Shown here in pieces: positions 6,001 to 54,000 of a stretch of 64,000 bases of DNA. This stretch comes from Candidatus Omnitrophota bacterium. Its GTDB lineage: Bacteria > Omnitrophota > Gorgyraeia > Duberdicusellales > 4484-171. The position numbers were made by a program, and so were the translations under genes. The stretch covers positions 5,464 through 69,463 of the forward strand of contig JBAWWL010000001.1 of NCBI GenBank assembly GCA_037146775.1, read 5' to 3'. Under the pieces are notes generated by a model. It searched no databases. It worked only from the letters and a program-made list of their open reading frames with translations, and was not told the DNA's origin. Numbering within the stretch: position 1 is the stretch's first letter; the number at the start of each line of letters is the position of its first letter.

Positions 6001-9000
6001 GTGGTTTTTCTCATACCAGCTGGATGGTTACTAGCCGTGGAGTGGTACAGGGAACAATTAGCGCTTTACGTTGGATTTTACATGTGCTTACGGCTCATAC
6101 CGGAGAATATCCGCAGGAAGTAGTTGATTTCTTAAAGCGCCTTAATATTAATTTCGATAGTTTGAGTGGGCTTATCCAGGGCTTTGGCGATGTGGGAAGC
6201 GGTATCGCTAAGCTGCTTTTGACTGTTTTTGAAGTATTTAATATAAGGATACGCGGTTTCTCTAATAAATATTTTGCTATTTATCGAAAAGACGGTTTGC
6301 CGCAAGAATTCGTTATGGAAGCCCGCCGCATCGCCGAAGTTTCTCCGGATGCTCTTACGGCTTTACGTTTACTTGAGATGAGTTACTTTGGGGAAAACCT
6401 TTCCGGAGCAACGCTGTGGGTAGCTAATCCGTCAAACAGAAAAACGCAAGTTGCATTATTATCTCCGGCAGATATAGCAAGATTATCTACCCAGTGCCAA
6501 AGCAAAGGTGTTAATGCTACTTTTGGCGATGCCGCAATCGTAAACGAACTTATCTATCAAGAAGCTACGCTGTTATTTCTTGCCGCCGGTGCAAATATTA
6601 TTATTGATCCGGAACAAATCAATAGACTACAAGCTTCGGTGATATCTGAAGGAGCGAATAACGCTATCAAAATGGATCTTCAACCGCAACTGCGCCGCGC
6701 AGGGAAATTATATTTGCCGGGAGAACTCTTGAATGGCGGAGGAATTTATACTTCCAAGGAAGATATTCGGCACAATCATACCGATGGAGTGGCGGCGATA
6801 GTCCATAACGGAAGCTATTATCATACTCATGTTACTGACGAGATAGATTCACTTGTCTTGCATCGTACTATTTCCTTACTTGAGCGCTGGGCTGAAACCG
6901 ATGCAAACTTTGCCTTAGATTTTACTGAGCAGATAAGAATAGTAGCCAGAGGAATTTCAAATAGAGCAGATAGTTTAGTCAGAGAAGGAAACCGCCGCTT
7001 GATGCAATTTGCAGCTATTGACCAGGAAAGAGTCAGAGACCGTTTGAGTGGACAGCCGAGATTGCCTTTGCGGCATTCACTTTACGAAATTGCCATGGAA
7101 ATGGCTCCTGCGGGAATTTTATATCGGCCGCAAGATGTGGGTAGATATTTAGAACAATTAGAACGATGGCAATTTATGGTTTGTGAAGACGGCCGTATAG
7201 ATAATTACGATATTTGTCAATTACGGCTGCTTCTTTTTGTTTTGATGAAAATGAGTTACTACCTTAAGGCAGATCAGCGTAGCAGGCTTATCGCGGTGCT
7301 TACTTCAGCTATCCCTAATAAACACATTGATAATTTAGTGCGCAAAGAAGCTTTGGTTTGTTTAACTATGGTAGTAATGTGGCATGCTCATAATCGGCAA
7401 GATGTTGTAGACAGAGCGGTTAGTTTATGCCGCGATATCTTAAGAGATCCTTCGGAAACTGCCCGGTTACATGTATGGGCACAATACTCACTTTACCGGA
7501 TTATGGGAATTGGTTATTTAGAGCAAGCTCAGCTATTAGGCTCCGATACCGCAAGTTACCAATCTTTACCCGCCGCGCAGATAGCTGAAACTTTATGGCA
7601 TAATGCGCTTGTACTTACCGCGCAAATTCTGGGCGTGCATAGTGCAGATGAAGTTGTAAATAGGTTACGTGTTATCGGCGATCGGTCCGCTCACGGCCAT
7701 TTCAGATATATTCTGGCAACGTTAATTGCTCAACATTTGTCTATGGCGATACCCGGCATACGTAGCATATGGGCTTTTGGTGATGTGGGCGATACTGAGC
7801 GAGCTCGTCCAAATTCTGATTTAGATTTTATTATTGAAGTTGCTAGCGAAGATGCGCGTGCTCAGGTACGCGAATATTTATTTATTATCCTAAACAGGTA
7901 CCTTACTGAACAATTTAACGCCATGATGGATGGAACAGGCGTCCAAAGAGCAGGGTTGATTGAAGCCGACCACCCGCAAGCGCCACGTATACTTTTAACC
8001 CAAGAAGTTTTACAAGGTATAGGGCTTGCCGTGTTGATTCCTTATCCTGGCAGGCTCAGCGCATATCGAGAAGGATTGGCTACGTTGTTATTTCCTGCCA
8101 CTATTGAACAGCTATGGCAGAATACGGCAACAAACTCCAGCTCATCGCTTGAGAATAGATTTAATTCAGAGAAAGTTTCTTCCTTGGGGGCAAATATTGT
8201 TGCCTTGCCTTTTGTCGGGCGGGGGAGGGTTTCTTCATCTTTGCCAAACACGGTTGCGCTTAATGATTTAGATTTGCAAACCGCGGAGTTAATCGGCCAG
8301 GGTGCTTCAGCCAAGATATTTAAAGTTTCTCACGGAAAAACAGGGATGAAGTTTGCCTTAAAGATTTATTGCGGCCAGAGTTTATTATCTGAGGGTCAGA
8401 GTAGAGAGAAAGCCAGAGCTATTACCGCTTACGTATTAAAACTTTTTGGCCAGCACGCACAATTAGCCGAAGAAGGATTTATGCCGCGCTATTACAGCAG
8501 AGGCGAAGCGGCTTTTGATTTTAATACGGGAATAAGTTCTGGACAAATATATCCGTATTTTGTTATGGATTATCTTGACGGAGAAGCTTTAAGTAAACTT
8601 TTATTCCGGCAACATGCGGCTGTTTGCATAAGAAGCGCATTGCCCGGTGCAAGCTTAGATACATCTGCAGAACCCCACTGGCCACACACTTTAGCTGACA
8701 GGTTATGTCTTGCTATGGCTATAGCGCGCGCTTTAGAAAAATACCATAAAGAAGGATTGCTAGTGAAAGAATTAAAACCAGAAAATATTATTGTCCGTCC
8801 AAGCCACAAGGCTTCTTTGGTTGATCAGGACGGTATTGTGCCTCTTGGCTATGATTGGCTGATGAACCCTGAGCATATTCCTGAAATAGTGCGCGCCATA
8901 CATGCTGAATTATTCGCTGAGGATATTTCTCCGTTTATATACCGCGATAGCTTTTTAGAAAAGAAATTATTTACTGAACAATGGGATATTTATAGCTTTG

Positions 9001-12000
9001 GCATGGTATTACTTGAAATATTGGATTTTGATTGGTTTGCAACCACTATGCCTTTATTAAGAGCAAGATTTGCTTTTTGTGGTTTGAGCACTCCTGGTGT
9101 GCTACGCCGTTTTATAGATCAGCATATTGGCGAACATACAAGGTTAAATACAACAACTGGCAGAGCATATAATATCTTAGGTTGCTGCATAAATTTAGAT
9201 AGAAGCAAACGTTATCCTGACACACAAGCGTTATTGGCAGATTTACAAGCCTGTCATGCGTTTGCTGTGCAAGAAATTTCTTCAGCCATCAGTGAAGAAG
9301 TACCTACAACAAAGACACTTTCTCCTTGGTTAGAGGCGCGGTTATCTTTTGGTTCATCAAGTTCGTCTTTAGGTTTTGCGGATATTGGTCAACCCAAGGT
9401 TAGAGAATTTTTAACTGCTCGCCAGGCTGTTATTAATAACGCTTCGCCCGATTACATTAGGGCAGTAACCTTTGGAGAGGTTTACAAACATCTTGGGTTA
9501 TATACTGATCTAGGAGATCCTAATGTAGCTGCCATCATCGGTGATTTAGACGATTATTTTACAGAAATGAAAGATCAAGCAGAGATGTATGCGGCAAGAG
9601 CAATTATAGAAGGCAACGAATACTTTTGGTTATGTTATTTTAAGAAAATGCGCCACAATAACCGTACTATTGAGTTGAAAGAATTCTTCTATGTCAATGG
9701 CATTAATATTGCGCATGGATTCTCTGTAGTTCAGCCGGAATTAATTATGCTTTTTATGGGCATTGATGAAGATTCATTTAAAGGTACAGGGCATATGCAG
9801 GTACTTTTTGATATTAAACAGGCGGTATTGCGAAAGGTATTCGGCCGCAGCAGCTTCGCTATGTTAAGTAGTCAGATACATGACTGGAATGCATTCTTTT
9901 TCTACATACGTAGAGGCTATTTACCGGTATCTCCGCAGCTACGGAATTTAGTAATAGATAATTTTCTTATACCCTGGTTACAAGATCCCAAGTATCTTGT
10001 TCAAAGCCCGGAAAATATTTTCGGAGAAGATTTCTTTCATCATGCGAGAAGGCTTAAATTTTTCTTTGAAGACGAAGTGCAATCATCATCGCCGGTTGCG
10101 CAGCAGGCGCAAGCCCAAGTGCTTTTTGATGTAACTAAACAAAAGTTTTATCTACCTTTAAGCCTACGTTATCTTGCTCTGCCGCTAAAGGCGGTATTAA
10201 ACGCCCAAGAGACAAAGCGCGAAGAAATTAAATTAGCCGTTGTTTTCGGTGATACAGATATTAGCTTTGAGTACGATAGCGAAATTACTCTCGGTGGAGA
10301 CGAGGAGCAGATATTACGGCAGCAACTATCTCAATTTAGAACAATGGTTGAGCCTATAGTGCGCTTGCCGCGGCGTATTCTTGTAGGATTTCGTTCGCAT
10401 TTTACCATGGAACAATTCAGTGCTGACGTTGTTTTCGGTAAACCTGTGCGTGAGGAAGCGCTGCAGCCCCTTATTGAGTTTGAAGAGCGTTTCTGGTTTA
10501 GCTATGCGCTTTTACGTGTGCCGGCAGCGCTTAATTATGCTGCGGTATATCCATGCTTTTTGCCTGAAGCTAGTGATACACCTTGGGAAGCTGTTAAATA
10601 TGATTCACCATATTATCAGTTCTTTTTAAAGACCGTTCCCGATGCTTACGGAACATTACTTGATCCGCTGCATTATTTATTTAAGTTGGACGATTCTTGT
10701 CGCGAATGTATAAAACGTATGGAAGCAGTTTATCCGTATTCTTATTTTTTCTTCCTGCGCCTTAATGCTATGGTCGAACAAAAACTCTTTCCAAAGTGGC
10801 TTGGGCTTGATATGAGTCGACCTTTTTATGTCAAGAGAATAACCGGTTTAGGTGATATGCATGTTTGCTTACGTTGTCTTGAAGAAGGACTCAGTCAGGG
10901 CAAGTTACAACTTGATTATTTTCAAGGTGCTGCTGATTGTCCCGGACAGATTATTCCTGTGCGCAGTAAAGTTCCTTCTGTTGGCGAGCTTGATACCTTT
11001 ACTGTAGAGACATTAGTTCCCTTAATTACATCCGGCAGAGTTGTTGCTGATAACACAAAGCTGGTTGAATTATCCGGATATGATCAAGAAGGTAATGCAG
11101 TAGAGAGAAAAATTATCTATAAACCATTCGATGCTGTGCTTATTGAAGGAGAATTTTCGTTTTTTACCAGAAATTTGCTGCTTCCTTCCTGCAGAGTACA
11201 GCCGGTGCAGGATGATTTTGGTATGTGTGGCTGGGTAGAGTATCTTGAACACCTGTCGCTTTCCAGCGATGTTTTATGCGAAAAGTTTTTAGCTCGTCCT
11301 CGATCGTTGGCCGAGTTTCGCTTTCTACTTTTTGTGTTAATTGCTTTAAGCTATCCTCTGGGGATTGCCGATTTTACCCAGACCAATTATTTTGCTGTAA
11401 TTCCTGGAGTGAATGAAGATAAAACAATATTATGGCCGGTGCGTATTGATACAGAGACAGGGTTTACACCTTTTAGCACCACCCTTCTTGAATATCTGCA
11501 GAAAATATACCCAGTACTCACCGATGAGCAGCGTTTTCCTGAATATTGTTTTGGCGGTAGCTTTGATGAGTTTGTGCGGGCTTTTATCGACACAAAAGAG
11601 CTTTTATTAAAGCCAACACCTGCCGTACCAGAAACTGCACTTGGCACTATTGGTAATTTTGCCCAGCGTCTGCTAACTAAGATGGATCAAGGCGTGGCTT
11701 ACTGGAGGAGAGAAATTATAACAAATACAGTAAAATACGCCGCTGATGCCCGGCTCAAAGGCATATCACCTTATTATTTACGCCGGGTTAATTCTGGACA
11801 TATACAGCAAATGATTATCCGTAACGTTATATTACATGTGTTTTTAAATCACAATAGCTCATCGCCTATAGTACTTGAACAAATAACTGACATAGATTTT
11901 AGCAGTATAATTGCCAAATACTATCGCGGAGCGCGCCAATTATCAGATCATTTGTTGGCTCTACCGGTAAGCAGACAACTTAAAAAAATATCCCAAGAAA

Positions 12001-15000
12001 TGGTTACGGCTTTAGAGTGGAGGATAAAGACCGAGGCTTCTAGGTTTTCCAGCAATTCTGTTGTTAGTGAGATAAGCGCAGATATTATCCCTAATATAGT
12101 TGACGCTGTAGTGGAAAGGCTCGATATAAAAGATATCACTAAAAATCAAGCAGTCGCTGGTTGTCGTTTAAGTATTAACCGCAAAGCCGGCGCTTTTTGT
12201 CTAGAGTTCTTTGATAATGGTGTAGGTATCCCCTATCAAATATTACAAAGTTGGCAGAGTCTTAGCCATGAGGATATTTCGCGTATGCTTTTAGCAGATA
12301 CGGTTTGTCCGTGGCTTACCACAAAAGCAGAGGAAAAACTTGGCCTTTATCTGGGAAGAAATGGCCAAGGCATGCTCAATGTTTTTAAAGTTTTAACAGC
12401 ATTTAAGCTTAGCATGACTATTACCTCAAAACAAAAAGATAAGCCGGCGTACCTTTTCAGGCAGTTTGAAGACGGCAGAAAAGAACTAACTGTCACTACT
12501 CAAGAAACCGTTGGAACCGCTATTATGTTTAACTCAGACAAGCGCCCGGAAATTATAGCTTTATTAAATTTTTATCAAGCGACATTAATGGATGAGCCTG
12601 CTGTATCTGTGGCTCGAGCAGCTCAAATTATGAGAGAGCCTTCGCCGGAGAGGCTGCGTAAGTTATTAAAAACTAATCCTGACGTAGCAAAGCAATATAA
12701 TATTCAGCCCGGAGCAAGAAAAGTAAAACCTGTTGAATTGGATGTCGGGGTATATTTAGTGCGAGATTATTATATGGGAAGGCCGGTTACAAGTATCGAA
12801 ACGCACATAGGCTCGGCTGCTGATTATGATGCTCCAAGTGATGAATCAGTGGCAAGATCTTGCCAATACACAAGAGGTTATTTACCTAGAGGTAAGATCA
12901 TGCAAGGCAAGCGTTGGTCAAGCGAAGATGCAGAAATATTAACTGTCTGGCTTGATAGAGCATATTTAAGAATAGCAAAACATGTGAGATTAGCGGAAAG
13001 TAGAAGCAAAAGCCACATACCCGTTCATCCCAATGATCTTTATCCGGAGATGCTGGTTTTAGACTATCGTCCGCTTGCTAATGGCAGGGTTGCGGCTGAT
13101 TTTGTATTTGCGATATCCGGCGGCAGGATAAGGTTATGGATTATGGATCCTAAACGTAATTGTGTGCAATCAATGGTTCATATGATTATTCAGGGAGCGA
13201 TCGATCCGGTTTCCTTCAGAACTCTTTTAGACGAATTAGAAAGCGAGCGTACACTTTCTGAAATTATTTCAGCGTCGTCAGTGGTGGAAGTGAATTTTGT
13301 CGAAACCCCCGAATTAGCAACATTGGCTAAAAGTAAGGATATTTTTAGTGCCTGGCTTGGTTTTTGGGCTGATTATTACCAAGTTCCCGGGCCTTTGAGC
13401 GTTTTATTGCGCAAGGGAGGATTAGTGATTAATAATCCGGGGAAACGTTATGAAAATCAAGTTTCGAGCTTGTCGTATGAAGTTTTGGGCACAATACTTT
13501 TAGTACATAACATGCGTACTTGGAAATATTACCACAGGCGTTTAATGGCGCTTGAGCACGTTATTTTAATCGCAAATCACGGTATAGAAAGGGTTATCTA
13601 TACCTCTTTGGAAAAGATAGAGCACGCTGCTTTTATCACCGGTATGAAAGAAGTCCTGGGTGTATATTCCCACCTTACTTGGACAAATCCGGAATTTGTG
13701 CTTGGCGGTGACGCCTATTCGTTAGTTGATCGGGGAGTCGTGGAATTGCTTTTCGGCGACCGCGATGCGGCTTATAAGTTTATCAGCAAGCAACCGTATA
13801 AATGGCCGGGAGCAGTTTCTTCTTCTGTTAATAATATTCGGTTGCGGCAGGATAAACAAAGAGCTACCTCTTCCGTGGCTGGTTGGGGTTCTTTGCCTGC
13901 TGCAGCCGAGCCAGAAGGCTCGTGGTTTGGCCTTGCCTTTAAGCCAAAGCCACACATATATATAGGTAAGAAGAATAAAGCTATTTCTTCTAGGGTTAGC
14001 TCTGCTGTTTCATCAACGCTGCCATTTTATTCTAGCGGCAGCATTTTTTCGGCTAACGATACTTATCCTATACCTATTTTTTCTTCACGCGATATTGAAG
14101 GCGACCGCGTCCACACACTACCTTTTGGAGAGATTTCCAATTCCCATTACCTACGAATAGCTATTGGCCCAAAAGTAATTTACATAGGTACACATCACCA
14201 CGGCGCATTTTTGTTTACTCTGCTTGCATATATTGAAGCGTTAATCGATGGAGGAGAGGATTTTGTACATATTGATTTTAGAAGGCACCCCGATAATTCC
14301 CCTGCAACCAATACACCATCATTAAACGATACTATTGCTAAGTACATAGGTTATTTTAAGCGTCAACAGAATGATTATTCTCTTAGGGAGGGTAATTATG
14401 TAACTGCTCTAAAACAGTTGTTTGCCGCTATGCGCTTTATATTTTTGTCCACTGAAATTGAACCAGATGCTGATTGGGGTGGTATGCGCTTTGACAAAAA
14501 AGATTCTGTTTTCACCTTTAGAGAAAGGTTGGTCAACGGCATAGCGAGTCTAGACCTAGATATATTTAATGATCGTTATAATCTGGAAACCACTCCAGAT
14601 ATGATAGCCTTGATGGATTGTTTAGTGGAAATAGTAAGTGAAGCTAAGGTGATAATGATTTTTTCTTCTCCGGGTTACCTAGAAAGAGATAGAGAGATGA
14701 TCATTCCAGAATTTTTAAACCGTTTATTAGCGAAATTGCAAAATAATCAAGATGCTAGAACAAATCACTCAGGCGCGCTACCCTATGTTTCGATTCCTTC
14801 AGCAAGAAAAGTAGTATTTCATAATGCTTATTTAAATGGCAGAAGGGTTCTTAATCCGAGAATGACTGTTAATGTCTTGCGGCAAGAGTTTATGGCTTCA
14901 TCCGTACTGTCTGGTAATATTTTCGGCTCTCTCAAAACCGCAATTCACGCCCCCCCTGCTATCGACTATGTACTACATACTATATACTGCCAAATCAGCT

Positions 15001-42000: not shown

Positions 42001-45000
42001 ACTGGTTAGGCCTAGATATGATTCGTGATAAGCAATTATATCCGTCGCCAGAAAGTATAGATTTATTTCATCAAGCGTTTGATCCTTTAAGCGTGGTAAA
42101 TTTATATAGGCACAAGCTTGAACGCTTAGTTAAGCCCGATGGTTGGTTTCTATTTGCAAATCGTAGTGGCTGCACTCATCTATGGTCTTATGAGCAGTGG
42201 CTTCGAGAAAGAGAATACCCTTATTTAATATATTACCAGCGTGCGCCCCCGGTTGATTACCCTCTTACTACCTGGTGGTATGCAGCAATACAGGATTATG
42301 GATTATATACCATCAATGGCGTTAACTATGTTATTGTTGCCAGAAAACAATCAGGGGGTACACTTACTTTCTCTCAAACTCAAGATTTCCGCGTTTCATC
42401 ATCCATACAATCATCAAAATTAAAAGTATTAATACTATGTTCTGCCAACGAGAATCGTTCGCAGGTACTCGCGGTATTCTTGCGCCAGCAGCTGGAACGG
42501 GATGGATTAGGTCATAGTGTGGAGGTTGTCGCACGTGGCACTTCTGCAGCAATAGAATATAGAAGCGAACTTGGTATTCCGGCAGAAAAAAGTGCAGAAA
42601 CAGCCAGAGTATTAATTTTAGGGCGAGTTTCCTCTGAGCACCTAGAGCGCATAAACGTACCGCAAAGAGTTTCTTTAGAAGAATTAGAGGAAGCCGAGAT
42701 TATTGTCTGTGTTGATCAGGCGAATGTGAGCGTCGAGCTATTTGGCTTGTTGCGAGAAGAGCATCTTGAGCCTACCAGCGCTATCTGGCAAGATATCGCG
42801 AAAAAGATTATATATACCGATCTTCCTGACCCATCCCTGGCCACTTTAATGGCTAAGAATGCTCATATGGCCGTGTTTAATAGGGCAATTTTTTATCAGC
42901 TCATGAAAAAAGCCAGGAGTCTTATTACGGGAGTACTTATTTTAACTATACAGCAAAGATTAAGTGGCAAATATTTATTAAAGTGCAGTTCTTCTGCTAT
43001 TAGTCTATCTGATTTAGATTTAAGCCGGAAAGAATTCATTACAAGGGGTAGGTACGGCCTGCTTTTTAAGGTCCCGCTTGTAGATGGTACTCAAGCGGCG
43101 GTATTAAAAATATATTACCTGAGGAGTTTATCGCCGGAGCGTTTCGTGCCGCTATGTCAGCATTTACTTTCGCTTTCGCAAAAACTTCCTACTCTAACAC
43201 AGCAAGGATATATTCCAACATATCATTGCAGCGGTTTTTGTTCGGTGTGCGGACAAATAGATAATCCAGCTAATTGGAATTTGACCCTTTACGGCCAAGA
43301 TGTCCCTCAAAGATCAAATCACCATTTATGTTGTTTTATAGTTATGGATTATGTGCCGGGTAAGGATTTTAGTCATTTCTTGCGCGAAGGCTATGCTTAT
43401 AGAAGTACGGTTGAACTTCGTAAATTAAAAAATCTTCTTACTTTTACGCTTGCGATTGCTAAAACCATTCAATTATGCCACAAAAAAGGACTTATTATCC
43501 GCGATATAAAACCTTCTAATATTATGGTTGATATTAGTGAAAGGTTACATATACGTACTAACCTTGCTGATCTTGAAGGCGCATTTGTTTTACCCTTGTC
43601 ACCCGTAGACCGCTTAGTATATGAAATGTGTACACCGCTTTATGCTGAAAGTCTTGCCCCCTTTAGTCAGGACGCATCCGGCCATATTACTCCTGAGGCC
43701 TTAGACTTAGGTAAAAGATTTTTTGACAGGCAATGGGATATTTATGCTTTTGGCATGGTATTAGCCCAAATAATTTTTACAGGTTTAGATATGGATGCTG
43801 TGCAAAAACAAGAACTATTAGGTTTATTCTCTCATGAATATCATTCCGCAGATGACTTAGATAGTTTGAGGTTACAGTTAAAAAGAGCAATTATTTTAAA
43901 GCTTAGAGAAATCGCTGGCGTGACTATTCAGTCCCCAGAAAATACGTTACGAAGAGTACTTAGCGAATTAGCCTTGGATTGCCTTAAGCCCAGAGCTGGC
44001 CGGCCGTCGGAAATGGAAATAGTTGTCGAGCGCTTAAGGGAAATTTCTACTTATATCCAGCCTCGGGTTTCCTCGGCAATACTTAGCAATGTTGGGATGA
44101 CTAATAGTATCGTTCAATTTCCCGGTCTGGGCTTATGGGGCACATGGAATTATCGCCGGACTTCTAACGCAAAAAGAGCAACTTTAAGAATACATCAAGG
44201 TTTTCAAGATTGTGGCGATGTTACATTCACGCTTGAAAATGGCGGTATTGTTCTTTATTCCTGCAATGATTTGAATGTGAGAGTCACTAGTCGTGGCTAT
44301 GGTACGATTCTTTTAATAAATGGCCTTATATTAGCTGAACAAGAGGCGCGCCGGAAGCAGCTGTCGGTGCGCTGGGCGTTGGTTTATTATACTCGCGAGA
44401 ATGATGACAAGATGGAGGACGAGCGTATTGCAGCATTAGAAAGATTCTTAGAGAAATTATGTTTTGATAGTATTCAGCAAGCAATCATAAAGGATGCGCG
44501 TCTGAAGAGGCTTTTGGCAAAATACCCGCACACAAAAGCAGCGGGAGAATTTGGACAATGGTTTATTTCTTTAGAATTTTTGGCCTTATTACACCGCGAG
44601 TTGTTAGCTAGGTATACCTTTAATTTAAACAATAGCGATACTGTTTCTTCGAGTATTCCTCTTAATTATATAGCCAGACATGGTGTTGCTTCATCTCCTT
44701 CCCGTGGCAGGGATGATAGGCGAAAAAGAAGAGATCACAGCATAAAACAAAAGCGCTCAGCTCTCGGTTTAGCTATGTCTAGCAGCCGTGATGTAATGCA
44801 ACCCTTAGAAACCGGTACGCCTGTGTGGTATGACCAGTATTTTCCGCTTAAGCATGAATTAAAAGAGAAAATTATTAGGATTGTACAATGGAGAGAAAAG
44901 CCTGACTTTGCCCGGGGTCGTTCCGGATATATACGCTTCACTCAACCGCTCGTGTATGTATTAACTACACCCAGAGGAGAAAAGAGTTTTGCGATTTATG

Positions 45001-48000
45001 GCATTAAGATAAAAAACATGGGTGATTTTTCTCAAAACCACGCTTGGCTTCAGCCCGGTGATATCCCAGAAGGCTACATCGAACACGCAAATATGGTGGA
45101 AGTGCATCCCGTAATTGATGCAGCTTGCAATATTCATCCAGTAGTTGTTCCGCCTATTCCTTTTGGCGCGGAAAGATTCAGCTATGCTCGCCAAGAAGCA
45201 GAAAACTCTTTACGGGCTATACTTTCCGGTGGAGATGTTTTTGTGCCTTTTGGTTTTATTCCTTACCAGAACCGCTATTTTGTTGACCCGCGCACGGGCC
45301 AACGTGATCCTTTGGGTGTAACTATATTAGGTTATTTAGTTCCCGATGACCATCGTTTTGCAGATATCTTTTTAGAAAGTTATTGGCAGCCGCATCCTTT
45401 CGGAGGAAGAATTACTTATCTTAGTGATTATGGCCGCGCGGTAATTCCTGAATCTCAACGTACAAGCATATCTGGCTTGGCAGCTTTTACTGAAGTACCG
45501 ATTAGCGCATCAGCCCAGACACTTTCTTCTTTAAGCGAACAAAAACTTTTAGTAGCTGCTCCGCATTATTCAAATGCTGCTTACGCTGGTGGAAATATGT
45601 ATTACGGTGATTTAGTAGAAAGTAAATTTTCCGATGGTTTAAGTCCTGAGCAGGCATTTTTATATCAGTTGCTTTGGACTATATCGCAAGCGGTTTGTGG
45701 TTTAGATAAACTTTTAGTGCGTACCTCGCTTGGCGCAAGCATCGCCCTTGAGCGCTCGCCTAATCTCTATCAGGTATTTTTAAGAAAGTATTTTTCCGGT
45801 ATAGACCCAACGGCTTTTGCCGCAATTGACCGGTTGGCGTGGGATCTTCGCGATACCGCTAATCAATTTATGCAAGGAGTAGAGGTGACTTTGCAATTTC
45901 ATTCGATTCAAGAATATGCCCTACATCGGCAGTTAGTAGAATGGATTACTGTGTATAGTCTTTATGAAGTTTTAGCTTTACAACAGAATAGATTCGGCAT
46001 AAGAAAACCGTACGATATAAACGAATTCGTAGCGCGCTATCGGATTTATAAAGAGGAATGTCAACAGGCTGTTCTTTGGGCAACGCAAAACCGTGGTAGA
46101 GTGAGGCCGCGTTCTTCATCTCCGCTTGAAGAAAAATCTCCATCTCACCATTGGTGCGCAAGTAATCCCGCCACATTAGGAAGGTTTTTAGTAACTGCAT
46201 TAGCCCAAGCGCCTCATTTACCGGAAGTTCTTTTTGGGGTTATCAGGGTAAGCTTACGTCAAATAGAAGTGCTAACCGGATACATTACCCGCGAAGGCTT
46301 ACGTGTTAACCCTGGTTTAGTGAAAGCAACGCAAAAGTGGCTCGATGCTTTATTTATTCTTACTGATAGGCCGGATACTAATTGCCCGGAGGCTTTGCTA
46401 TCCTGGGAGTCTTTAGAAATACTTAAGGCTGCTGGGGTGGGTAGTATTTTGATTGAACCCTATCGCGGTAACAGCCAGACAGATGACTTGCGCGGCCTGC
46501 AAAAATCCGAATTAGTACTTACTTACATGCTTAAAGGTTTTGAGGAGGGATTGTCCGCAAAATATCAGGGGATTATTCTTCTTTCCTATCCGGAAGTGGA
46601 GAAGTTGACTCAAGGTGTCGTTAGTGCACAATATTTATTAAGCCACCCGCACATAGCAAGAACCATGAATCAAACTTTTAAGCGGGTTTTTTCCTTCCAG
46701 GCTTTTCCTCTTGTTGAAAAAAGCCTGGAATCTTTACGCAATAGCGCTTATTGGCTCAGGCAGCTTGGTGTGTGGCGCATTGAAATTCTACCCGCTGCTA
46801 AAATTCTCGGAGCCAAATTCGATAATTGTCCGCCTAGTGCAGCTCGTAGACTAATCGTTGTTATCGCAACAAGAAATATTCAAAGAGTTCATCTAAAATT
46901 TTCTGAAAATACAACTGCAACTTTGTTAGATAAACATCCCGGTCAGGGTTTGCTTAGTAGCAATCCTTCCTTGTGTGCGAGTATCAATGGATTGCTTTCC
47001 CAGGCTTGCTTGCGTCCAGCGCCTTCGAATAAAGATAGCGATGAGTATTATTGGTGGTTGGCAGGTAGGCCGTTAAGAGAGAGAGGTATCCGGAGTGTAA
47101 AAATTGAAAAATACATAGATGCAAGAACATCTTTAAAGAGGAATCCAAGGTGCAGGGCTTTAACCGACCGACAAGCTTTTGACCCATTAAGCTCATCAGC
47201 ATTAATATCAGTTTATCATCAATTAGCTGCAGAGTTAAACTCAGACAGAGACCTGATACGCGTACTTAAAACCCCGCAATGGAGCCCTCTGGTGGGTTTA
47301 AGCGATTGCCATGGTGGAGCATGCAGTATTTGGGAGTTGGCAACATTATTAAGAAAATTTTCCAAACCGGGGATATTGGTAAGACTTGATGACCATACTA
47401 AAGCTGATTTAGCTCATGTTGCTGAATTTCATTGGAAATCTCATTGGGGAGAATTTCCTTATATTGCACCTTTGCCGGGTCCGGGAGCTTTAGATATCCC
47501 TAACCGCTACGGTAACGTTGGTTTTACCGTACCAGCTTTATATAACAATATTATTAATGAGATATATTTTGTTCAGCGCCGTAACCTTGATAAAACTGTT
47601 GCTCAATCTTTTGAGGCTATGCTTTTTAGAACCGTTGATACGCAATACGGATATCGCTATGTTTATGTTACTTTTCCTGCAGAAGATCATCTCAGTAACT
47701 ATACGAGTCGAGGGGTTATCACCGAAGCAATACGAAAAATAAAAATGCATATTATTACTGATCCAGCACAAATTCCTGATTTATCCAGCGTAGATAAGCC
47801 GGTATTCTGGGATGTAGATGCTGACTGGCATTTTGGGAATTACTATCATGACGGTATGTCAATTGATGAAACTTTAAATTTAGCTGAGCAATATCACGCA
47901 GCTATTCGCAGAATGCCCGATGTGTATACTTTTGCATTTTCTTCCGAGACAACCGGAGGAAGAATGGTGCCGGATAGAAAAAGAGGCGGCATGATCACAG

Positions 48001-51000
48001 GAGGAATTGAGTTAGCAGAAACTAGTAATCATGCCAAAATTTTCTTAGGCTGGCAGGAAATATTTAGGAGATCAGAGCTAAGATTCGTTGGTGATGTTCC
48101 TGCTTTGTTTTCTATACCCGATGTTTTACAAGAATATCGGCAATTAGTTCAGGCTAGTTCGGCAGTAGTTATACCTAACGAAGAAATGTCTAGACATGCC
48201 AGCTCTAACAAGGCAAATAGTCGCATCACGCTTACAGAATATTTAAAACGTCACAAGACAACTATTCTTGTGTTTGGCGATACAGCGCTTCACTATTCTG
48301 TTGTAGATAGTATCAGTGATTTTAATGATTTGGTAGATGGCGTTATGGAACACGTTAAATTTGGTAGATTTATTTTGGCAGACGATGCGGAAAAAGGCCC
48401 GTTCTATTTTTATAGCGGTCCGGCAGTAGCTATCCACGGAGATCCTTTAGCGGAAGAATTTTCCGGGCAGGAATTAGCTTCGAGGCCAACCCTGTTTACT
48501 GCCAGAGGTGTACCCATGGAGTCGGTTTTAAAAAGTGTTTATAGCATTGACGATGGTAGTTTGTTGGTGGTTTCTTGCAACAAAAATGGGCAACCCTTGC
48601 GGGAAAGTTTTATTCCTTATGTATATGCCACTAACACAGTAAGACAATATTCGCAGCCTATAGCAGACATTACTTTTACGCAAGGTAAGAGGTTGTATTT
48701 TAACCCGCCAATAGTAATGTTGGTTTGCGATCAGCCCGGTTCATGGCAGCAAACCAGACCTGCAAAGATCAACGGAGAAAATTTATTAAATCACGTTGCG
48801 TCATATACCGTTTTTGACAGACGCCTGGATGTGCAAAGAAACAATACTGATGTTTCTTTATTGTTGGCTGCAATGCAAAATATTCCTCAATGGTTACGGC
48901 ACGAGATGCGAGCGTGGCAAGAGTCCCGCGCGTCTTCAGCGGCAGATTTTGGCATGAGTTTTCTAGATATAAGAAAGGGTGTTCCTGTCATTGAGTCTGG
49001 CACTGTTCTGTGGATGAATGTCCACGGATTTATCAAAGATGAAGCCGGCCAAGAGAAGGAAAGGACGGAAAGAGAGGCAATCGCAGAACTCCGTCGGAAA
49101 GGAGTTTTGTACGGCGCATACGATATTGTACCTTCAGTAAAACACCCTTATATTGCACTATACGTTCAGCGCTTTTTAGGGCGATTACCGCAGCATGTTA
49201 ATACATTGATTATGTGCGGTCATTATCTATATTTTCCCTCAGATGATGGTGGTTGTATGGAAAGAGCAATAAGGGGCGCGTATGAAGCCTTTAAATATAG
49301 AAACTATAATTTAGTATTGTCTCTGGATTTGATTCATCACTTGTCAGGCGTAGGTCATCATGTAGGCTTGGAAGATTTATTAGAGGTTTTATCTTTTACT
49401 CAGCACGGCCCGTATAGTACCAAAGTATTCTTTGATGATGCGATTGTTTCTCAATGGATAATACATCGAGTGGTTGAAGATTTACCGCTATCGGTACGTT
49501 TTTATACTTCAACCGGACTTATGCTGGAAAAATTAACCAGCTCTCCGCTCAAAGACAACATAACCAAATCCCACCCCGGAGGTGGGCTTTGGTCAAGACA
49601 AGCCCGCGTCTGTACTGAGCGAACGAAAGTGAGTCGAAATGCCAGCTCGCCGGTAGACAGAGGTCAGAGGTCAGAGGTCAGAAGTCAGAATAACGACAAC
49701 CTTATTTATCAGATAGGTGCGCATTCTTATTCGTCGAAAAATGAGGACAGAGAAATTTTGTCTGGCGCACCGTTTATTGCTGGCAATACCTCTAGTCCTT
49801 TACAGAAAGCTTCATCAGGTGGGCATCAGTATAAGCCTTTTAGCGCCAGGGAGAACGATGTATTTATTGCGGGAAATAAAGTTCGTCTTAAAATTCATGA
49901 GGTAAATAATGCTGGTTATATTAGGTTTGTTGTCAGTCGGCCACAACCCGCAGATTATAATCTACGGCCGGGTAGATCGCCGCCCGATGATTTTATCATA
50001 ACTGTTAATGCTGATAACCGCCCAACACAGATTATTCCCGGTTTTAATATCCGCGTGCAAAGAGTAAAGAAAAATAAAGCTGATATTATCCTTGGTTCGC
50101 CGCAAACTTATCCTTTTATAAAAGAAGAAAATCGTCCATCGGTTAGCTCGCCACAAGATTTCAACTCATTACTCGCTACTCAATGCTCACGACTTAAAGG
50201 TAGTTCGCCTTTACCAAATGCACAAGTGCATTATTATCGCCGCGGCAGTAGGTTTTATGATGAATTTAAAGGGGCTTTACGGCGTGATAAACAACATAGC
50301 CTTGAAGTTGTATTAGACATTCCCGCCATTAAGCAGGCTTTACCACGAAGAGCCGAAATACTTAATATTGGTTCCGGAAGAAACCCATTGCTTTCTGTTG
50401 GCGAGTATACTGTTGTCAACTATGATTCTCTTTTCCATGAAGAAAGGCAGACTTGGTCAGCCAGGGAGGAGGCTAATAAGGTGGGCGCGATTTTATGCGA
50501 AGATGAAATAATTGAAATAAAAGGTCATTGTTCAATGGCGTTGTGGTGGGATTTGTCGTTATTCATTTATAATTATGCACCCAGAACAACTATTTGGGAA
50601 GAAACCGTAGGAAAAACAGCTGAGCGAAAAGAACAGGTTTTTGCTGCTTGTCTGCAGCATGTCTGGTCAATTATTGCACCGGAAGGATTTTTAATGTTTG
50701 CAGGAAAATATTGGCCAGGCTTTCCTCCTTTCCATGCTTATAAGAGATTTATTTCCAGAATATTTAATGTATCGCATATATATGTTATCGGCGCAGCGCT
50801 TGATAATTCTGCTAAAGCCATAATTTTGCAAAAAGTAAGTTCAGCGCTTCAGGTTCCTATGCCTTCTTTGTCACTTACTTCTGCGGCAGTGCATTATTAT
50901 AAGCCCGGTACAGAATTTTTTGACGGATTTCGCGTAAGAGAACAAAAAGCCTCGCTTGAACTTGTTTTATCCATCCCGGCCATTGCGCGGTTTTTGCCTG

Positions 51001-54000
51001 ATGAGGCTGTGATATTTAATATTGGCTGCGGAAGAAATATATTGCCTAACCTTGGCAATCGTATAGTAACTAATTACGATGCTCTTTTCTGTGAACATGA
51101 TGCAGTATCCTGGTCTGCTCAAGAAAGAGCGCAACAAATAGGAGCTTTACTGCGCATAGAAGAAATAACTAAGATAACCGATAAATGTTCATTAGCCTTA
51201 TGGTGGGATTTACCGCATTATATTTGTAAACAAGCGCATAGGGCTTCAATTTGGGCTGATACCCAAGGCGAGCTGGTAGCACGTAGAAGACAGGTTCTTT
51301 CCACTTGTTTAGAGCATGCTTGGTCTATTATTAATCCAGCAGGATTCTTTATGATTGCCGGCACATATTGGAATCGGCATACCCCAGCCCATCTTTACAG
51401 ACGGATAGCAAGCTTGGCTTTCAATATATCAAACATGCATGTTATCGGAGCAGAACTGGACAAATATGCTAAGGCCATAATCCTACAAAAAGCAAGCTCA
51501 GCGCTTAAAAATACAATTACTCTCAGAGATTTAGATCTTAAACGTCAGGAACTTATTGAAAGGGGGGGGTTTGCTGCTGTATATAAGGTGCCAAGTAAAT
51601 ATGAAGACAAAACATATGCGGTAAAAGTATACTGTTTTGAAAATAAAGACGATCCGGAAGTAAGAAAACAATTAAGCAGGCTCGTTCGTTATGTGGCTGG
51701 TTTCAGGGTGCGTTATCCGGTATTAAAGGAGCTAGGGGTTATACCTTCATATTATGATTGGGGTTGGTGTTCTCTGGATGAAGAAGATGGGCTTATGAAC
51801 CCGCATTTTTGGCGCAGGGACTACCCTTATATAATCATGAATTTTATCCAAGGTGCAACATTACAATGTTTATTTGAGATAGAGCGTTGGGTATTGGAGA
51901 ATGACTGGACGCATAAGCTAAAAGTTGCCTTGGGCGTAGCCCGTTTAGTTTCGCAATGTCACAGCCAGGGTTTGATCATAAAAGATCTTAAACCATCCAA
52001 TATTAAAATATTCTGCGACACCAGCGCCCAAGAGCGTTTTAGTTTGGTGGACATGGATGCTGCAGTTCCTCAAAACTACAACTGGTTTAAATGGTCGTGG
52101 CTTATAGCCAAACGCGAACGTGTTCCGGAGTGGACGCGTAATATCCGTACTGATAGCTATTGCGAAGACTTGAGGCCATTTGTCGAAACCGATTCAAGAT
52201 TTTCGCGTCGCCAGGCGGCTAGAGCCGCAACGGAGCTATTTACTCCACAGTGGGATATATATAGTTTTGGCCTTATTTTGGCGGAAACGCTAAATCCTTT
52301 GGCTATGCTTGAGTATATAAAAGGAGGAAATCAGCAGTTAATTTCACGAAATGTTATGGCAGAAATCGAGCAAGCCATTGCGCTCGCGCGAGCTAGCGCA
52401 GAACTATTAGCTGAAGTTAAGGAAATAACTCATAGAGTAGCCAAGGGTTGTTTGCTTCCTCGTACGCTCGGCCGTTATCAGGATATGGCTAGTGTTATCA
52501 GAGATTTAGAAAGAGCACAAGCGTTGTTGTCCCAAGCTTCTTCATCCTTGGTGGATGGTAGAGATATTGTAGTTACGATGCCTCCGATAATTGTTCCGGA
52601 TGTAAGTCCAAAGATAGGGCGAATCAATGGCATGCCTTTTAATACTTTAACTCATGATTTGACATTGCAGTTATTTCCGCTTGAGCTGATTTTAAAATAT
52701 AAACCGCAATGGCGCGATCATTTGAAAGTTCATGTTGAAAGATTACACCGGCCGCTTCTTGAAGAGCATCATGCCCAAATATATAAAAGGTTGTTTAGGC
52801 GTGTATTTCGTATTGATATCAGTGTAAATAATTTTACACAACCAGATAGCCGATTTATTACATTTAGTCTTAGGCGCACTGTATATTCGCAATTAATACC
52901 AGAAACAGAAGTGGCTTATCTTTCATTGCTGCAAGAAAAAGATTTTATGGTTTTTAGGATGTTTTTAGCGCCGGCACTCCAAAGAGGAGAAGAAATCCAA
53001 GGTATTGGGAGTGCTTGGTATGCTGAAATCATAGAACCATATTTTATGAGTTTAGGCGCAAAGCACATTGGTACTTATTGGAGTTGTCTTAACGCTAACA
53101 AGGCTTGTCAGGCTTTCTTTGTGGGAAGAGATTTTTCTATAGAGGACGACGTATTAAGCTTAAAAGGAGTTGCCCTTTTCTATTATTATGCGGCGACTAA
53201 AAGTTTAAAAGATTCTCTAATAATTATTGAGAGAGTTTCTTCTTCTGTTTCAAGTCAGGAAAATGTTGTCAATTTTGAACAGATGCAGCAGTATTTACGC
53301 GCTTCAAGAGTAAAGATTGGTATAGTGGTTCCGGTTGCAGAAAGTAAAACAGTACTTAGCGCGGTTAGCCAGCTACGCGAAGATCTTGGAGGAAATATTG
53401 AAATTATTCTGACTGGAGACAGCAATAGAATTTTAGCAAAATTGCCACCCGCATTACAAGGTATAGCTGCCATTGAGCATATCGCTTACCCTGTGATGGA
53501 TAGCGCTTTAAGCGAAGAAACTTCGCAAAAAGCAATCTTAACTTATCAAGTTCAGTGTATCAAGAAAGGCCTGGAATATGTTAAAGCTGGTCTTGCCCAG
53601 ATTATCCTTAAGGGCGATGTGCCTACCGATGTATTGATGCCTGAAGTTTTTTCTTCTGCCAATGGCTTAAGAACTCCTGGTCAAATCATCACCCATTTAC
53701 GCGAATTCGAAAGAAAAGATGTTGAGGGTATATTTAGTATGAGCGATGGCGGCATAAATACTGTTCCTGATGCTGCAACCAGAGGGCAAATTGAATCCAA
53801 TACAAAAAAAGTTTTAGGTTATTTTGGTAATACCGAACCCGCAATATGTATTTTAAGCCACGCCGGCACATTCCCCACTATAGAAAAAATATTCCGGGCT
53901 AAGGCGATAATCTGTCCGGATATAGATTCGGCGAATATAATTTATAAGGCTTGCGCTTTAGGCCTCCCTTGGGAGCTAATACATCGCGCAACTACTTGGT

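Follow-up and report, generated by a model that had tools for sequence, protein, structure and literature searches.

We analyzed a 64,000-nucleotide stretch of contig JBAWWL010000001.1 from a Candidatus Omnitrophota bacterium (assembly GCA_037146775.1), hereafter the window, and identified three kinase-like modules, K1, K2 and K3, on one giant open reading frame (ORF). The modules are self-contained cassettes within this multi-enzyme ORF, and sequence comparison assigns them to a small, previously unannotated Hanks-type (eukaryotic-like) kinase subfamily whose named members so far all come from Candidatus Omnitrophota. We favor, with moderate confidence, the reading that they represent a lineage-restricted, divergent subfamily of Hanks-type Ser/Thr kinases carried as cassettes in the giant ORF, with K2 and K3 probably active as ATP-dependent phosphotransferases. 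K1, whose catalytic base is Glu, whose P+1 Thr is missing and whose Pfam score falls below the threshold, is the most degenerate copy and would be a weaker or altered-chemistry variant.

A six-frame stop count over the window gave 907–1,876 stops in each of five frames and zero in frame +3, where bases 3–63998 form one 21,332-codon reading frame that is open at both window ends. The region had earlier been described as several genes or modules; it is a single stop-free ORF. The three modules and their motifs, the latter read from the translation, are located as follows.

3–63998, + strand: continuous ORF holding all features below (six-frame stop count and Pfam tiling)
8259–9353, + strand: K1 kinase-like module, residues 2753–3117 (family profile 578 bits; Pfam Pkinase 30.0; AlphaFold2 model)
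8259–8312, + strand: K1 lead-in, LNDLDLQTAELI-GQGASA
8355–8369, + strand: K1 beta3 Lys in ALKIY
8763–8786, + strand: K1 catalytic loop VKELKPEN, Glu at the catalytic-base position
8823–8834, + strand: K1 DFG position, DQDG
8979–9002, + strand: K1 subdomain IX, QWDIYSFG
9186–9215, + strand: K1 subdomain XI, CINLDRSKRY
8232–8240 and 9354–9368, + strand: Ser runs on either side of K1
43005–44084, + strand: K2 kinase-like module, residues 14335–14694 (family profile 472 bits; Pfam Pkinase 40.5)
43005–43058, + strand: K2 lead-in, LSDLDLSRKEFI-TRGRYG
43101–43115, + strand: K2 beta3 Lys in VLKIY
43497–43520, + strand: K2 catalytic loop IRDIKPSN
43569–43580, + strand: K2 DFG position, DLEG
43731–43754, + strand: K2 subdomain IX, QWDIYAFG
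43980–44006, + strand: K2 subdomain XI, CLKPRAGRP
42987–42995, + strand: SSS run immediately 5′ of K2
51522–52538, + strand: K3 kinase-like module, residues 17174–17512 (family profile 675 bits; Pfam Pkinase 35.5)
51522–51575, + strand: K3 lead-in, LRDLDLKRQELI-ERGGFA
51618–51632, + strand: K3 beta3 Lys in AVKVY
51978–52001, + strand: K3 catalytic loop IKDLKPSN
52050–52061, + strand: K3 DFG position, DMDA
52248–52271, + strand: K3 subdomain IX, QWDIYSFG
52449–52478, + strand: K3 subdomain XI, CLLPRTLGRY
52539–52547, + strand: SSS run directly 3′ of K3

All motifs quoted for the modules in the initial annotation lie in frame at the places given there, but the 3′ ends it assigned (9250, 43900 and 52400) fall short of the complete kinase domain and subdomain XI. 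A profile of the three modules, run against the ORF, returned exactly three full copies (K1 578, K2 472 and K3 675 bits). The modules lie 2,800–11,500 residues apart, each with different neighbors. Self-BLAST linked K1 with K3 at E = 1.5e-40, K1 with K2 at 1.6e-20 and K2 with K3 at 2.7e-20, and 50 columns are invariant in the alignment of all three. Two of their motifs are confined to them: the ORF, with its 21,332 residues, contains DLDL exactly three times, against ~0.6 expected from composition, and [QE]WD[IVL][YFW] likewise exactly three times. The extended subdomain IX strings read TEQWDIYSFG in K1, DRQWDIYAFG in K2 and TPQWDIYSFG in K3. Mutual identity is 27–32% with 91–148 BLASTP bits, compared with 17–23% and at most 71 bits against generic Hanks kinases. 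This is the pattern of homologous kinase-like domains, not that of modules no closer to each other than to unrelated Hanks kinases.

We next consider profile matches and fold. Against a gathering score of 31.7 bits, Pfam Pkinase (PF00069) scored K2 and K3 above the threshold, at 40.5 and 35.5 bits, and K1 just below it, at 30.0. Pkinase and PK_Tyr_Ser-Thr were the only Pfam families matched; APH, Kdo and ABC1 gave no match. Fold modeling covered K1, for which an AlphaFold2 model built from a 12-sequence family alignment reached a predicted local distance difference test (pLDDT) value of 84 and a predicted template modeling (pTM) score of 0.85. In a Foldseek search of the PDB, the best match of this model was PknB (5u94; E = 1.2e-11, target TM-score 0.73), followed by IRAK4, FGFR and STK16, the top matches having E ~1e-11 and target TM-scores of 0.60–0.73. 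All of the top 50 matches were protein kinases. The predicted structure of K1 is thus a bilobal kinase fold, as the initial annotation had anticipated. As a separate candidate, we considered anti-phage defense kinases (MADS Mad6, PD-T4-6, PglW and MkoA) and rejected them, all scores being far from the family cut-offs. In the NCBIfam scan, MAD6 was best, scoring 47 bits where the cut-off is 460, with PknB_PASTA at 43 against 450, and PADLOC matches reached at most 56 bits, confined to the generic catalytic core.

Relatives of the modules were found by a HMMER profile scan of 1.84 billion representative proteins, which gave 10 proteins at E ≤ 1e-30 with one full-length match each; about a dozen relatives share the same motifs. 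A gap separates the family from other kinases, with members scoring 73–240 bits per domain against the family profile and generic kinases at most 58. The organism-named members (5 of 5) are Candidatus Omnitrophota/Omnitrophica proteins from metagenome-assembled genomes, all partial. In a neighbor-joining tree with 500 bootstraps, family monophyly was recovered in 100% of replicates. The shared signature runs from L-x-(D/N/E/S)-L-(D/N)-(L/M/I) in the N-lobe and (K/R)-(D/E)-L-K-P-x-N in the catalytic loop to D-x-(D/E/K)-(G/A/S)-x-VP-x-x-Y-(D/N)-W, (Q/P/E)-W-D-(I/V)-Y-S-F-G and C-x-x-x-x-R-x-x-R-Y from the DFG region onward. Changes common to the family are (I/V/L)-(K/R)-(D/E) in place of HRD, a degenerate Gly loop and L-x-D-L-D-L on strand beta1. 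By catalytic loop, members divide into a Glu type (KE-L-K-P, then V-R-P; K1, P0012, P0013, P0015, P0020 and P0023) and an Asp type (K2, K3, P0014 and P0016–P0018).

The module occurs in varied contexts among these relatives. In P0012 (MBN3040327.1), a Metallophos domain is followed by the module between two hydrophobic helices (residues ~440–870) and then by APH and Bac_transf domains; the string WLKAQRR precedes this module, consistent with a loop on the cytoplasmic side of a membrane protein. P0013 has CheR, HTH_8 and then the kinase module, and P0017 is a complete 1,660-residue protein with the module at its C-terminus. Other searches were less productive. A word-indexed protein search with the three-module or the 12-sequence alignment returned generic kinases only (best E 8e-7 and 7e-14, respectively) and missed the relatives. 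Scanning a genome collection with the generic DLKPxN pattern yielded, among the matches listed, only ordinary kinases at no more than 33% identity, and a metagenome scan with [FL][TDN][ERP]QWDIY gave 474 pattern matches, none confirmed.

To judge which motifs are atypical, we took residue frequencies from a background set of 149 generic kinases. The lead-in before the Gly loop, earlier proposed as a domain-boundary motif, is subdomain I and not a boundary element, because LDLQTAELIGQ of K1 forms strand beta1 directly before the Gly loop in the AlphaFold2 model (model residues 13–23) and the lead-in aligns to PKR in a profile search of PDB sequences. Its E-L-I part is canonical, these being the commonest residues at those positions in background kinases; at the D-L-D-L positions further upstream other residues dominate in the background, and this part is family-specific. 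The subdomain IX motif, also considered non-standard at first, divides in a similar way. D[IVLM][YWF][SA].G occurs 276 times in the background, making D-I-Y-S-F-G canonical, but the W right before it is found in only 2 of these 276 and is special to the family. The atypical nature of the DFG replacement was borne out, since D-F-G, in 135 loops, is by far the commonest background triplet and the next, D-L-G, is found in 10. HRD is present in 224 of 284 background catalytic loops, so the absence of its His is atypical, as is the Glu of K1 at a catalytic base that is Asp in 269 background loops and Glu in 15. Measured against this set, three features are genuinely atypical: the HRD His is lost, the catalytic base alternates between Asp and Glu, and D-x-(D/E)-(G/A) replaces DFG.

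Many residues needed for catalysis persist in K1, K2 and K3. All three retain the beta3 Lys (ALK, VLK and AVK), an acidic catalytic base with the Ser/Thr-type Lys at +2, the catalytic-loop Asn, the APE-type Glu (FAED, YAES and YCED), the subdomain IX Asp (DIYSFG, DIYAFG and DIYSFG) and the Arg of subdomain XI (within C...R..RY or C...RAGRP), and in K2 and K3 the K / D-x-K-x-x-N / D set is complete. The HRD position reads VKE, IRD and IKD, without His in any of them. DQD(G), DLE(G) and DMD(A) depart from the DFG motif, with the Asp retained and Phe and Gly replaced. The Gly-rich loops (GQGASA, TRGRYG and ERGGFA) do not match G-x-G-x-x-G, the middle Gly alone being common to the three. Across the family, the beta3 Lys is found in 10 of the 10 members covering the position, and the metal-binding Asp, an acidic catalytic base (Asp in six, Glu in six) and the subdomain IX W-D are each present in 12 of 12. 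The Ser/Thr-type Lys at +2 of the base is kept in 9 of 12, and so is the catalytic-loop Asn, the other three members having His or Gln there. Because catalytic positions are the best conserved at an overall identity of only 22–40%, catalysis, or at least nucleotide/metal binding, has probably been retained, most clearly in K2 and K3, and protein substrates are favored over metabolites because the C-lobe keeps protein-kinase-specific elements.

On the favored reading, K1–K3 would be Ser/Thr-type kinase cassettes with a regulatory role in the giant protein, and a low-molecular-weight protein tyrosine phosphatase (LMW-PTP)-like domain beside K2 and the metallophosphoesterase in P0012 would be candidate erasers. 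Several observations weigh against it. The HRD His is missing in every member, and the Phe and Gly of DFG are replaced. The Gly loop is degenerate in K1–K3, and two relatives lack any glycine there; the alphaC Glu shows no clear conservation in the alignment, and K1 has no P+1 Thr (HAELF). K1 and several relatives fall below the Pkinase gathering score (P0163 24.4 bits, P0017 22.3, P0012 no match; P0013 scores 32.6), and internal support in the neighbor-joining tree is weak, with 55% for K1 plus P0012. In addition, LMW-PTPs are normally Tyr/Arg phosphatases and PP2C is the usual partner of Hanks kinases, which leaves the eraser idea weak.

The same losses invite the view that the modules are pseudokinase scaffolds, which kept the fold, lost phosphotransfer and act as nucleotide-binding or docking modules organizing the neighboring enzyme domains. 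Besides the degenerate Gly loops, the lost HRD His, the replaced DFG and the weak Pkinase scores, this view can draw on the three relatives in which Asn has become His or Gln, the three that lost the +2 Lys, and K1 with its Glu at the catalytic base and missing P+1 Thr. We nevertheless consider it unlikely. The residues of greatest catalytic importance are the best conserved: beta3 Lys, metal-binding Asp and acidic base are invariant among the members counted above, conservation unlike the outcome of relaxed selection at 22–40% identity, and K2 and K3 carry the complete catalytic set.

Phosphorylation of small molecules or glycans, that is, of sugars, glucans or metabolites handled by the surrounding glycogen-type enzymes, in the manner of APH/choline-kinase- and POMK-type folds, appears improbable. 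The D-x-(D/E) at the DFG position does recall the I-D-x-E of APH-type kinases, for example FIDIE in the APH domain of P0012, and the ORF carries glycosyltransferase (GT), GH77, GDE, GlgB-like and other carbohydrate-active domains. However, the C-lobe keeps the T-x-x-Y-x-E P+1/APE segment, D-I-Y-S-F-G and the subdomain XI Arg, which APH/ChoK families lack. The Pfam matches and, for the K1 model, the best structural matches all point to protein kinases, and none of the three modules directly adjoins a carbohydrate-active domain.

Each module had been assigned partner domains in the initial annotation, and these assignments held to different degrees.

42426–42872, + strand: LMW-PTP-like domain, ~100 residues upstream of K2 (Pfam LMWPc, PF01451)
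42438–42461, + strand: LMW-PTP P-loop CSANENRS (C-X5-R-S), residues 14146–14153 (translation)
42819–42836, + strand: LMW-PTP candidate general-acid loop DLPDPS (translation)
6129–6776, + strand: Glu/Leu/Phe/Val dehydrogenase-like domain, residues 2043–2258 (Pfam ELFV_dehydrog, 39–41 bits against a gathering score of 23.4)
7776–7838, + strand: upstream of K1, possible nucleotidyltransferase motif of minimal type, FGDVGDTERARPNSDLDFIIE (translation, motif only)
50202–51509, + strand: tandem duplicate of a ~215-residue unit directly upstream of K3, R1 at 50202–50852 and R2 at 50865–51509 (BLAST)

The LMW-PTP beside K2 was corroborated: scanned alone, its segment scored 25.7 bits for LMWPc (gathering score 23.2), and the C-X5-R-S loop is intact. 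The dehydrogenase assigned to K1 is real but not adjacent, lying ~500 residues upstream. For the nucleotidyltransferase, the motif FGDVGD...SDLDF is present, but the segment gave no hidden Markov model match in Pfam or NCBIfam. The "duplicated methyltransferase-like pair" before K3 is a genuine tandem pair (51% amino acid and 61–67% nucleotide identity), each unit ending in AKAIILQK(V/A)SSAL, and it is the sole clear tandem duplication in the window. Its methyltransferase identity found no confirmation. The motif NIG(S/C)GRN resembles S-adenosylmethionine-methyltransferase motif I, but neither unit had a Pfam match even at E ≤ 1, the AlphaFold2 model (pLDDT 43) was too poor for a fold search, and hhalign to the real methyltransferase domains of the window aligned motif I alone, with a probability below 4%.

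The Ser runs that flank the modules belong to a wider pattern. The ORF contains 27 runs of at least three Ser, against 7.25 ± 2.7 in shuffles, starting at the residues below (nucleotide = 3 + 3(residue − 1)).

Ser runs 1–14, residues: 393, 430, 2712, 2744, 3118, 3361, 3952, 4606, 5836, 6794, 8443, 8952, 10472, 13155
Ser runs 15–27, residues: 13919, 14132, 14329, 14882, 14926, 15371, 15730, 17513, 17746, 18224, 19252, 19494, 21195
1179–1186, 8232–8239, 25329–25336, 26856–26863, 46113–46120 and 52539–52546: examples of the 8-mer TCTTCATC (8-mer count)

None of the 27 runs lies inside a Pfam match, and seven lie within 30 residues of a domain edge (both sides of K1, the K2 start, the K3 end, the LMW-PTP start, the GDE_C end and the PTA start). 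In 25 of the 27, the run is followed by Leu, Ile, Val, Pro, Ala or Phe. Ser-run codons favor TCT/TCA (64%, vs 37% for Ser codons overall). The window has 12 copies of the 8-mer TCTTCATC against 1.96 expected, and those in frame on the + strand are Ser-run sites. Omnitrophota relatives show the same Ser punctuation, often as K-SSS(S/A)-G, also in large neighboring genes without a kinase module. The runs look like inter-module punctuation, perhaps as flexible linkers, processing sites or phosphosites.

One relative offers a view of such neighbors. The locus L082 (JGI Ga0117905_1000028, 235 kb; positions 1–24983), which carries P0017, holds four large same-strand genes in series, of 2,606, 2,246, 1,660 and 4,943 residues; locus L081 is also relevant to such large-gene series. 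K-SSS(S/A)-G punctuation occurs in all four genes and the kinase module in one only. The three genes with starts in the locus share a near-identical signal-like N-terminus, MKK(Q/R)IFKTISCVLILAICINS..., and the three with ends in the locus finish in ...IDQAA* or ...ILSAA*. Read-through or recoded stops, considered for relatives ending in ...SAA, were rejected: each L082 gene stops at an ordinary TAA, after which come an intergenic region and a next gene with its own signal-like N-terminus.

The cleavage points of giant Omnitrophota proteins have been stated as unknown (West-Roberts et al., 10.1101/2023.11.21.568195), and as speculation the Ser-run linkers may be put forward as candidates. A more ambitious proposal is that the giant protein is a self-regulating assembly, in which embedded kinases and nearby phosphatases write and erase phosphates in cis on the Ser-triplet linkers, switching modules or controlling polyprotein processing. 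The linkers at domain edges (xSSS[LIVP] here, K-SSS(S/A)-G in relatives) would then be the phosphorylation targets, with the LMW-PTP beside K2 and the metallophosphoesterase in P0012 removing phosphate. We rate this proposal as quite improbable.

We also examined how the three copies arose. The initial annotation had held that they were generated inside this gene and that intragenic duplication is a major growth mechanism, a highly improbable account that our comparisons largely refute. In its favor are the three copies on one ORF, K1 as the single best BLASTP match of K3 (148 bits), the genuine tandem pair R1/R2 adjoining K3, and the repeated Pfam domains common in long Omnitrophota proteins (10.64898/2026.06.07.730766). 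Against it, over 303 trimmed alignment columns K1 shares 40% identity with P0012 and 39% with P0013 but only 28% with K2 and 32% with K3 (K2–K3 27%; 17–23% for any of the three to outgroup kinases). The BLASTP scores of K1 follow the same order (P0012 205 bits, P0013 185, P0015 153, K3 148, K2 91, outgroups at most 71). An exclusive clade of K1, K2 and K3 appeared in 0.2% of the 500 bootstraps, K1 plus K3 in 0.8% and K2 plus K3 in 10.8%. At the nucleotide level, blastn found similarity over only 33–35 nt, which code for QWDIYSFG. Each copy has flanking domains of its own, as does every relative examined, and BLAST-detectable internal repeats cover ~2,370 of 21,332 residues (11% of the ORF).

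Since K1 is closer to P0012 and P0013 than to K2 and K3, the exclusive clade is so rarely recovered and DNA similarity is limited to one motif, we read K1–K3 as ancient paralogues in a family that diversified across Omnitrophota lineages, not as products of this gene. Because repeats cover only ~11% of the ORF, the window gives no case for duplication as the main growth route. Further internal repeats of 29–33% identity, without Pfam assignment in our scans, comprise a tandem pair at 3135–3596 and 3660–4112, a pair ~3,000 residues apart at 4593–5126 and 14130–14678, and a ~90-residue pair at 35745–36017 and 38289–38558 that brackets the GlgB-like domain.

Pfam tiling of the ORF revealed a mixed enzyme content. 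Carbohydrate-related domains are GT4/GT1, GH77, GDE_N/GDE_C and a GlgB-like set of CBM48, alpha-amylase and C-terminal domain, which place a near-complete glycogen-type enzyme set on one polypeptide. Other domains are ELFV_dehydrog, HTH_3, ADH_N, GDSL, LMWPc, PTA_PTB and HATPase_c, together with three methyltransferase and three Pkinase matches. The tiling found no SecA/DEAD, peptidase or NUDIX domain in the window ORF. The window stretch of the polypeptide is essentially soluble, as it has only six hydrophobic 19-mers, all weak. The best named match of the GDE segment is from Omnitrophica, at 50% identity; its top three matches score 552–575 bits and every other at most 270.

A stand-alone 989-residue GDE gene, P0169 (L083 10001–12970; ENA ERZ21862645 ctg38531l, 3.36 Mb), is 44% identical to this segment and much closer to it than most GDE homologues are. 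It adjoins insertion-sequence (IS)-type transposase genes in an otherwise unrelated genome and yet is closely similar, which hints that the GDE module may have been exchanged between lineages. We rejected P0169 as a giant-gene orthologue, as the GDE gene stands alone on its 3.36-Mb contig.

The giant genes of Omnitrophota rank among the longest on record. The signature defined here and a family profile built from an alignment of members would make it possible to detect the modules in complete giant genes and determine their number. Neither the K1–K3 subfamily nor Hanks-type Pkinase domains are mentioned in the main text of two papers on such genes (10.1101/2023.11.21.568195 and 10.64898/2026.06.07.730766), which fits a subfamily scoring at or below the Pfam threshold, and a literature search found no mention of the subfamily. 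A strict Lys/Asp core combined with a lost HRD His, alternation of Asp and Glu at the base and D-x-D/E makes these modules a good case for the active-site tolerance of kinases. Repeated domains in giant genes should not be taken as evidence of recent internal duplication, because K1–K3 are ancient copies and repeats make up only a minor part of the ORF.

Compared with known systems, the modules represent a known domain type in a form that is divergent and restricted to one lineage, and the giant gene that carries them is likewise of a known kind. With PknB and other bacterial Hanks-type Ser/Thr kinases (PF00069), they share the bilobal fold (from the K1 model), the beta1/Gly-loop/beta3-Lys layout, a D-L-K-P-x-N Ser/Thr-type catalytic loop, the metal-binding Asp, the APE-type Glu, the D-I-Y-S-F-G subdomain IX and the subdomain XI Arg. 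Unlike these kinases, they have I/V/L for the HRD His, Asp or Glu as catalytic base, a weak Gly loop, D-x-(D/E/K)-(G/A/S) for DFG with a conserved VP-x-x-Y-(D/N)-W after it, and a W before subdomain IX. They are only 17–23% identical to them and lie within a protein exceeding 21,000 residues, not in a receptor-kinase architecture. Tandem canonical-kinase proteins (P0019 and P0024) also place multiple kinase domains on one long bacterial polypeptide, but their domains are canonical (HRD/HND, DFG, GxGxxG), nearly in tandem and reach no more than 58 bits with the family profile. APH/choline-kinase-type kinases (PF01636) share the acidic residue two positions past the metal-binding Asp (D-x-E/D, as in the FIDIE of P0012); the modules differ from them in giving no PF01636 match, in keeping P+1/APE and subdomains IX and XI, and in having a D-x-K-x-x-N loop in place of Brenner's H-x-D-x4-N.

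As for the gene itself, giant Omnitrophota proteins have been described as "Archaeovorins", defined by a length of at least 30,000 residues and containing glycosyltransferases, methyltransferases, glycosyl hydrolases, peptidases, NUDIX domains, many transmembrane regions and SecA-DEAD (West-Roberts et al. 2023, 10.1101/2023.11.21.568195), and as "multi-enzyme metabolic clusters" (10.64898/2026.06.07.730766). GT, methyltransferase, HATPase_c and sugar-metabolism domains are abundant in these proteins (10.1101/2023.11.21.568195; 10.64898/2026.06.07.730766), and repeated Pfam domains are frequent in long Omnitrophota proteins (10.64898/2026.06.07.730766). Unlike Archaeovorins, the part of the ORF inside the window shows no SecA/DEAD, peptidase or NUDIX domains and almost no hydrophobic helices; the ORF has at least 21,332 residues and extends past both window ends, vs the definition of at least 30,000. 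In common with both descriptions, it is a very long single ORF tiled with diverse enzymes (GTs, methyltransferases, glycoside hydrolases of the GH13/GH77/GDE types and HATPase_c), with sugar/glycogen-type content, Pfam domains repeated in one polypeptide and closest named relatives in Omnitrophota. By domain content, the window ORF therefore resembles the known giant multi-enzyme genes of Omnitrophota, of the Archaeovorin or multi-enzyme cluster kind.

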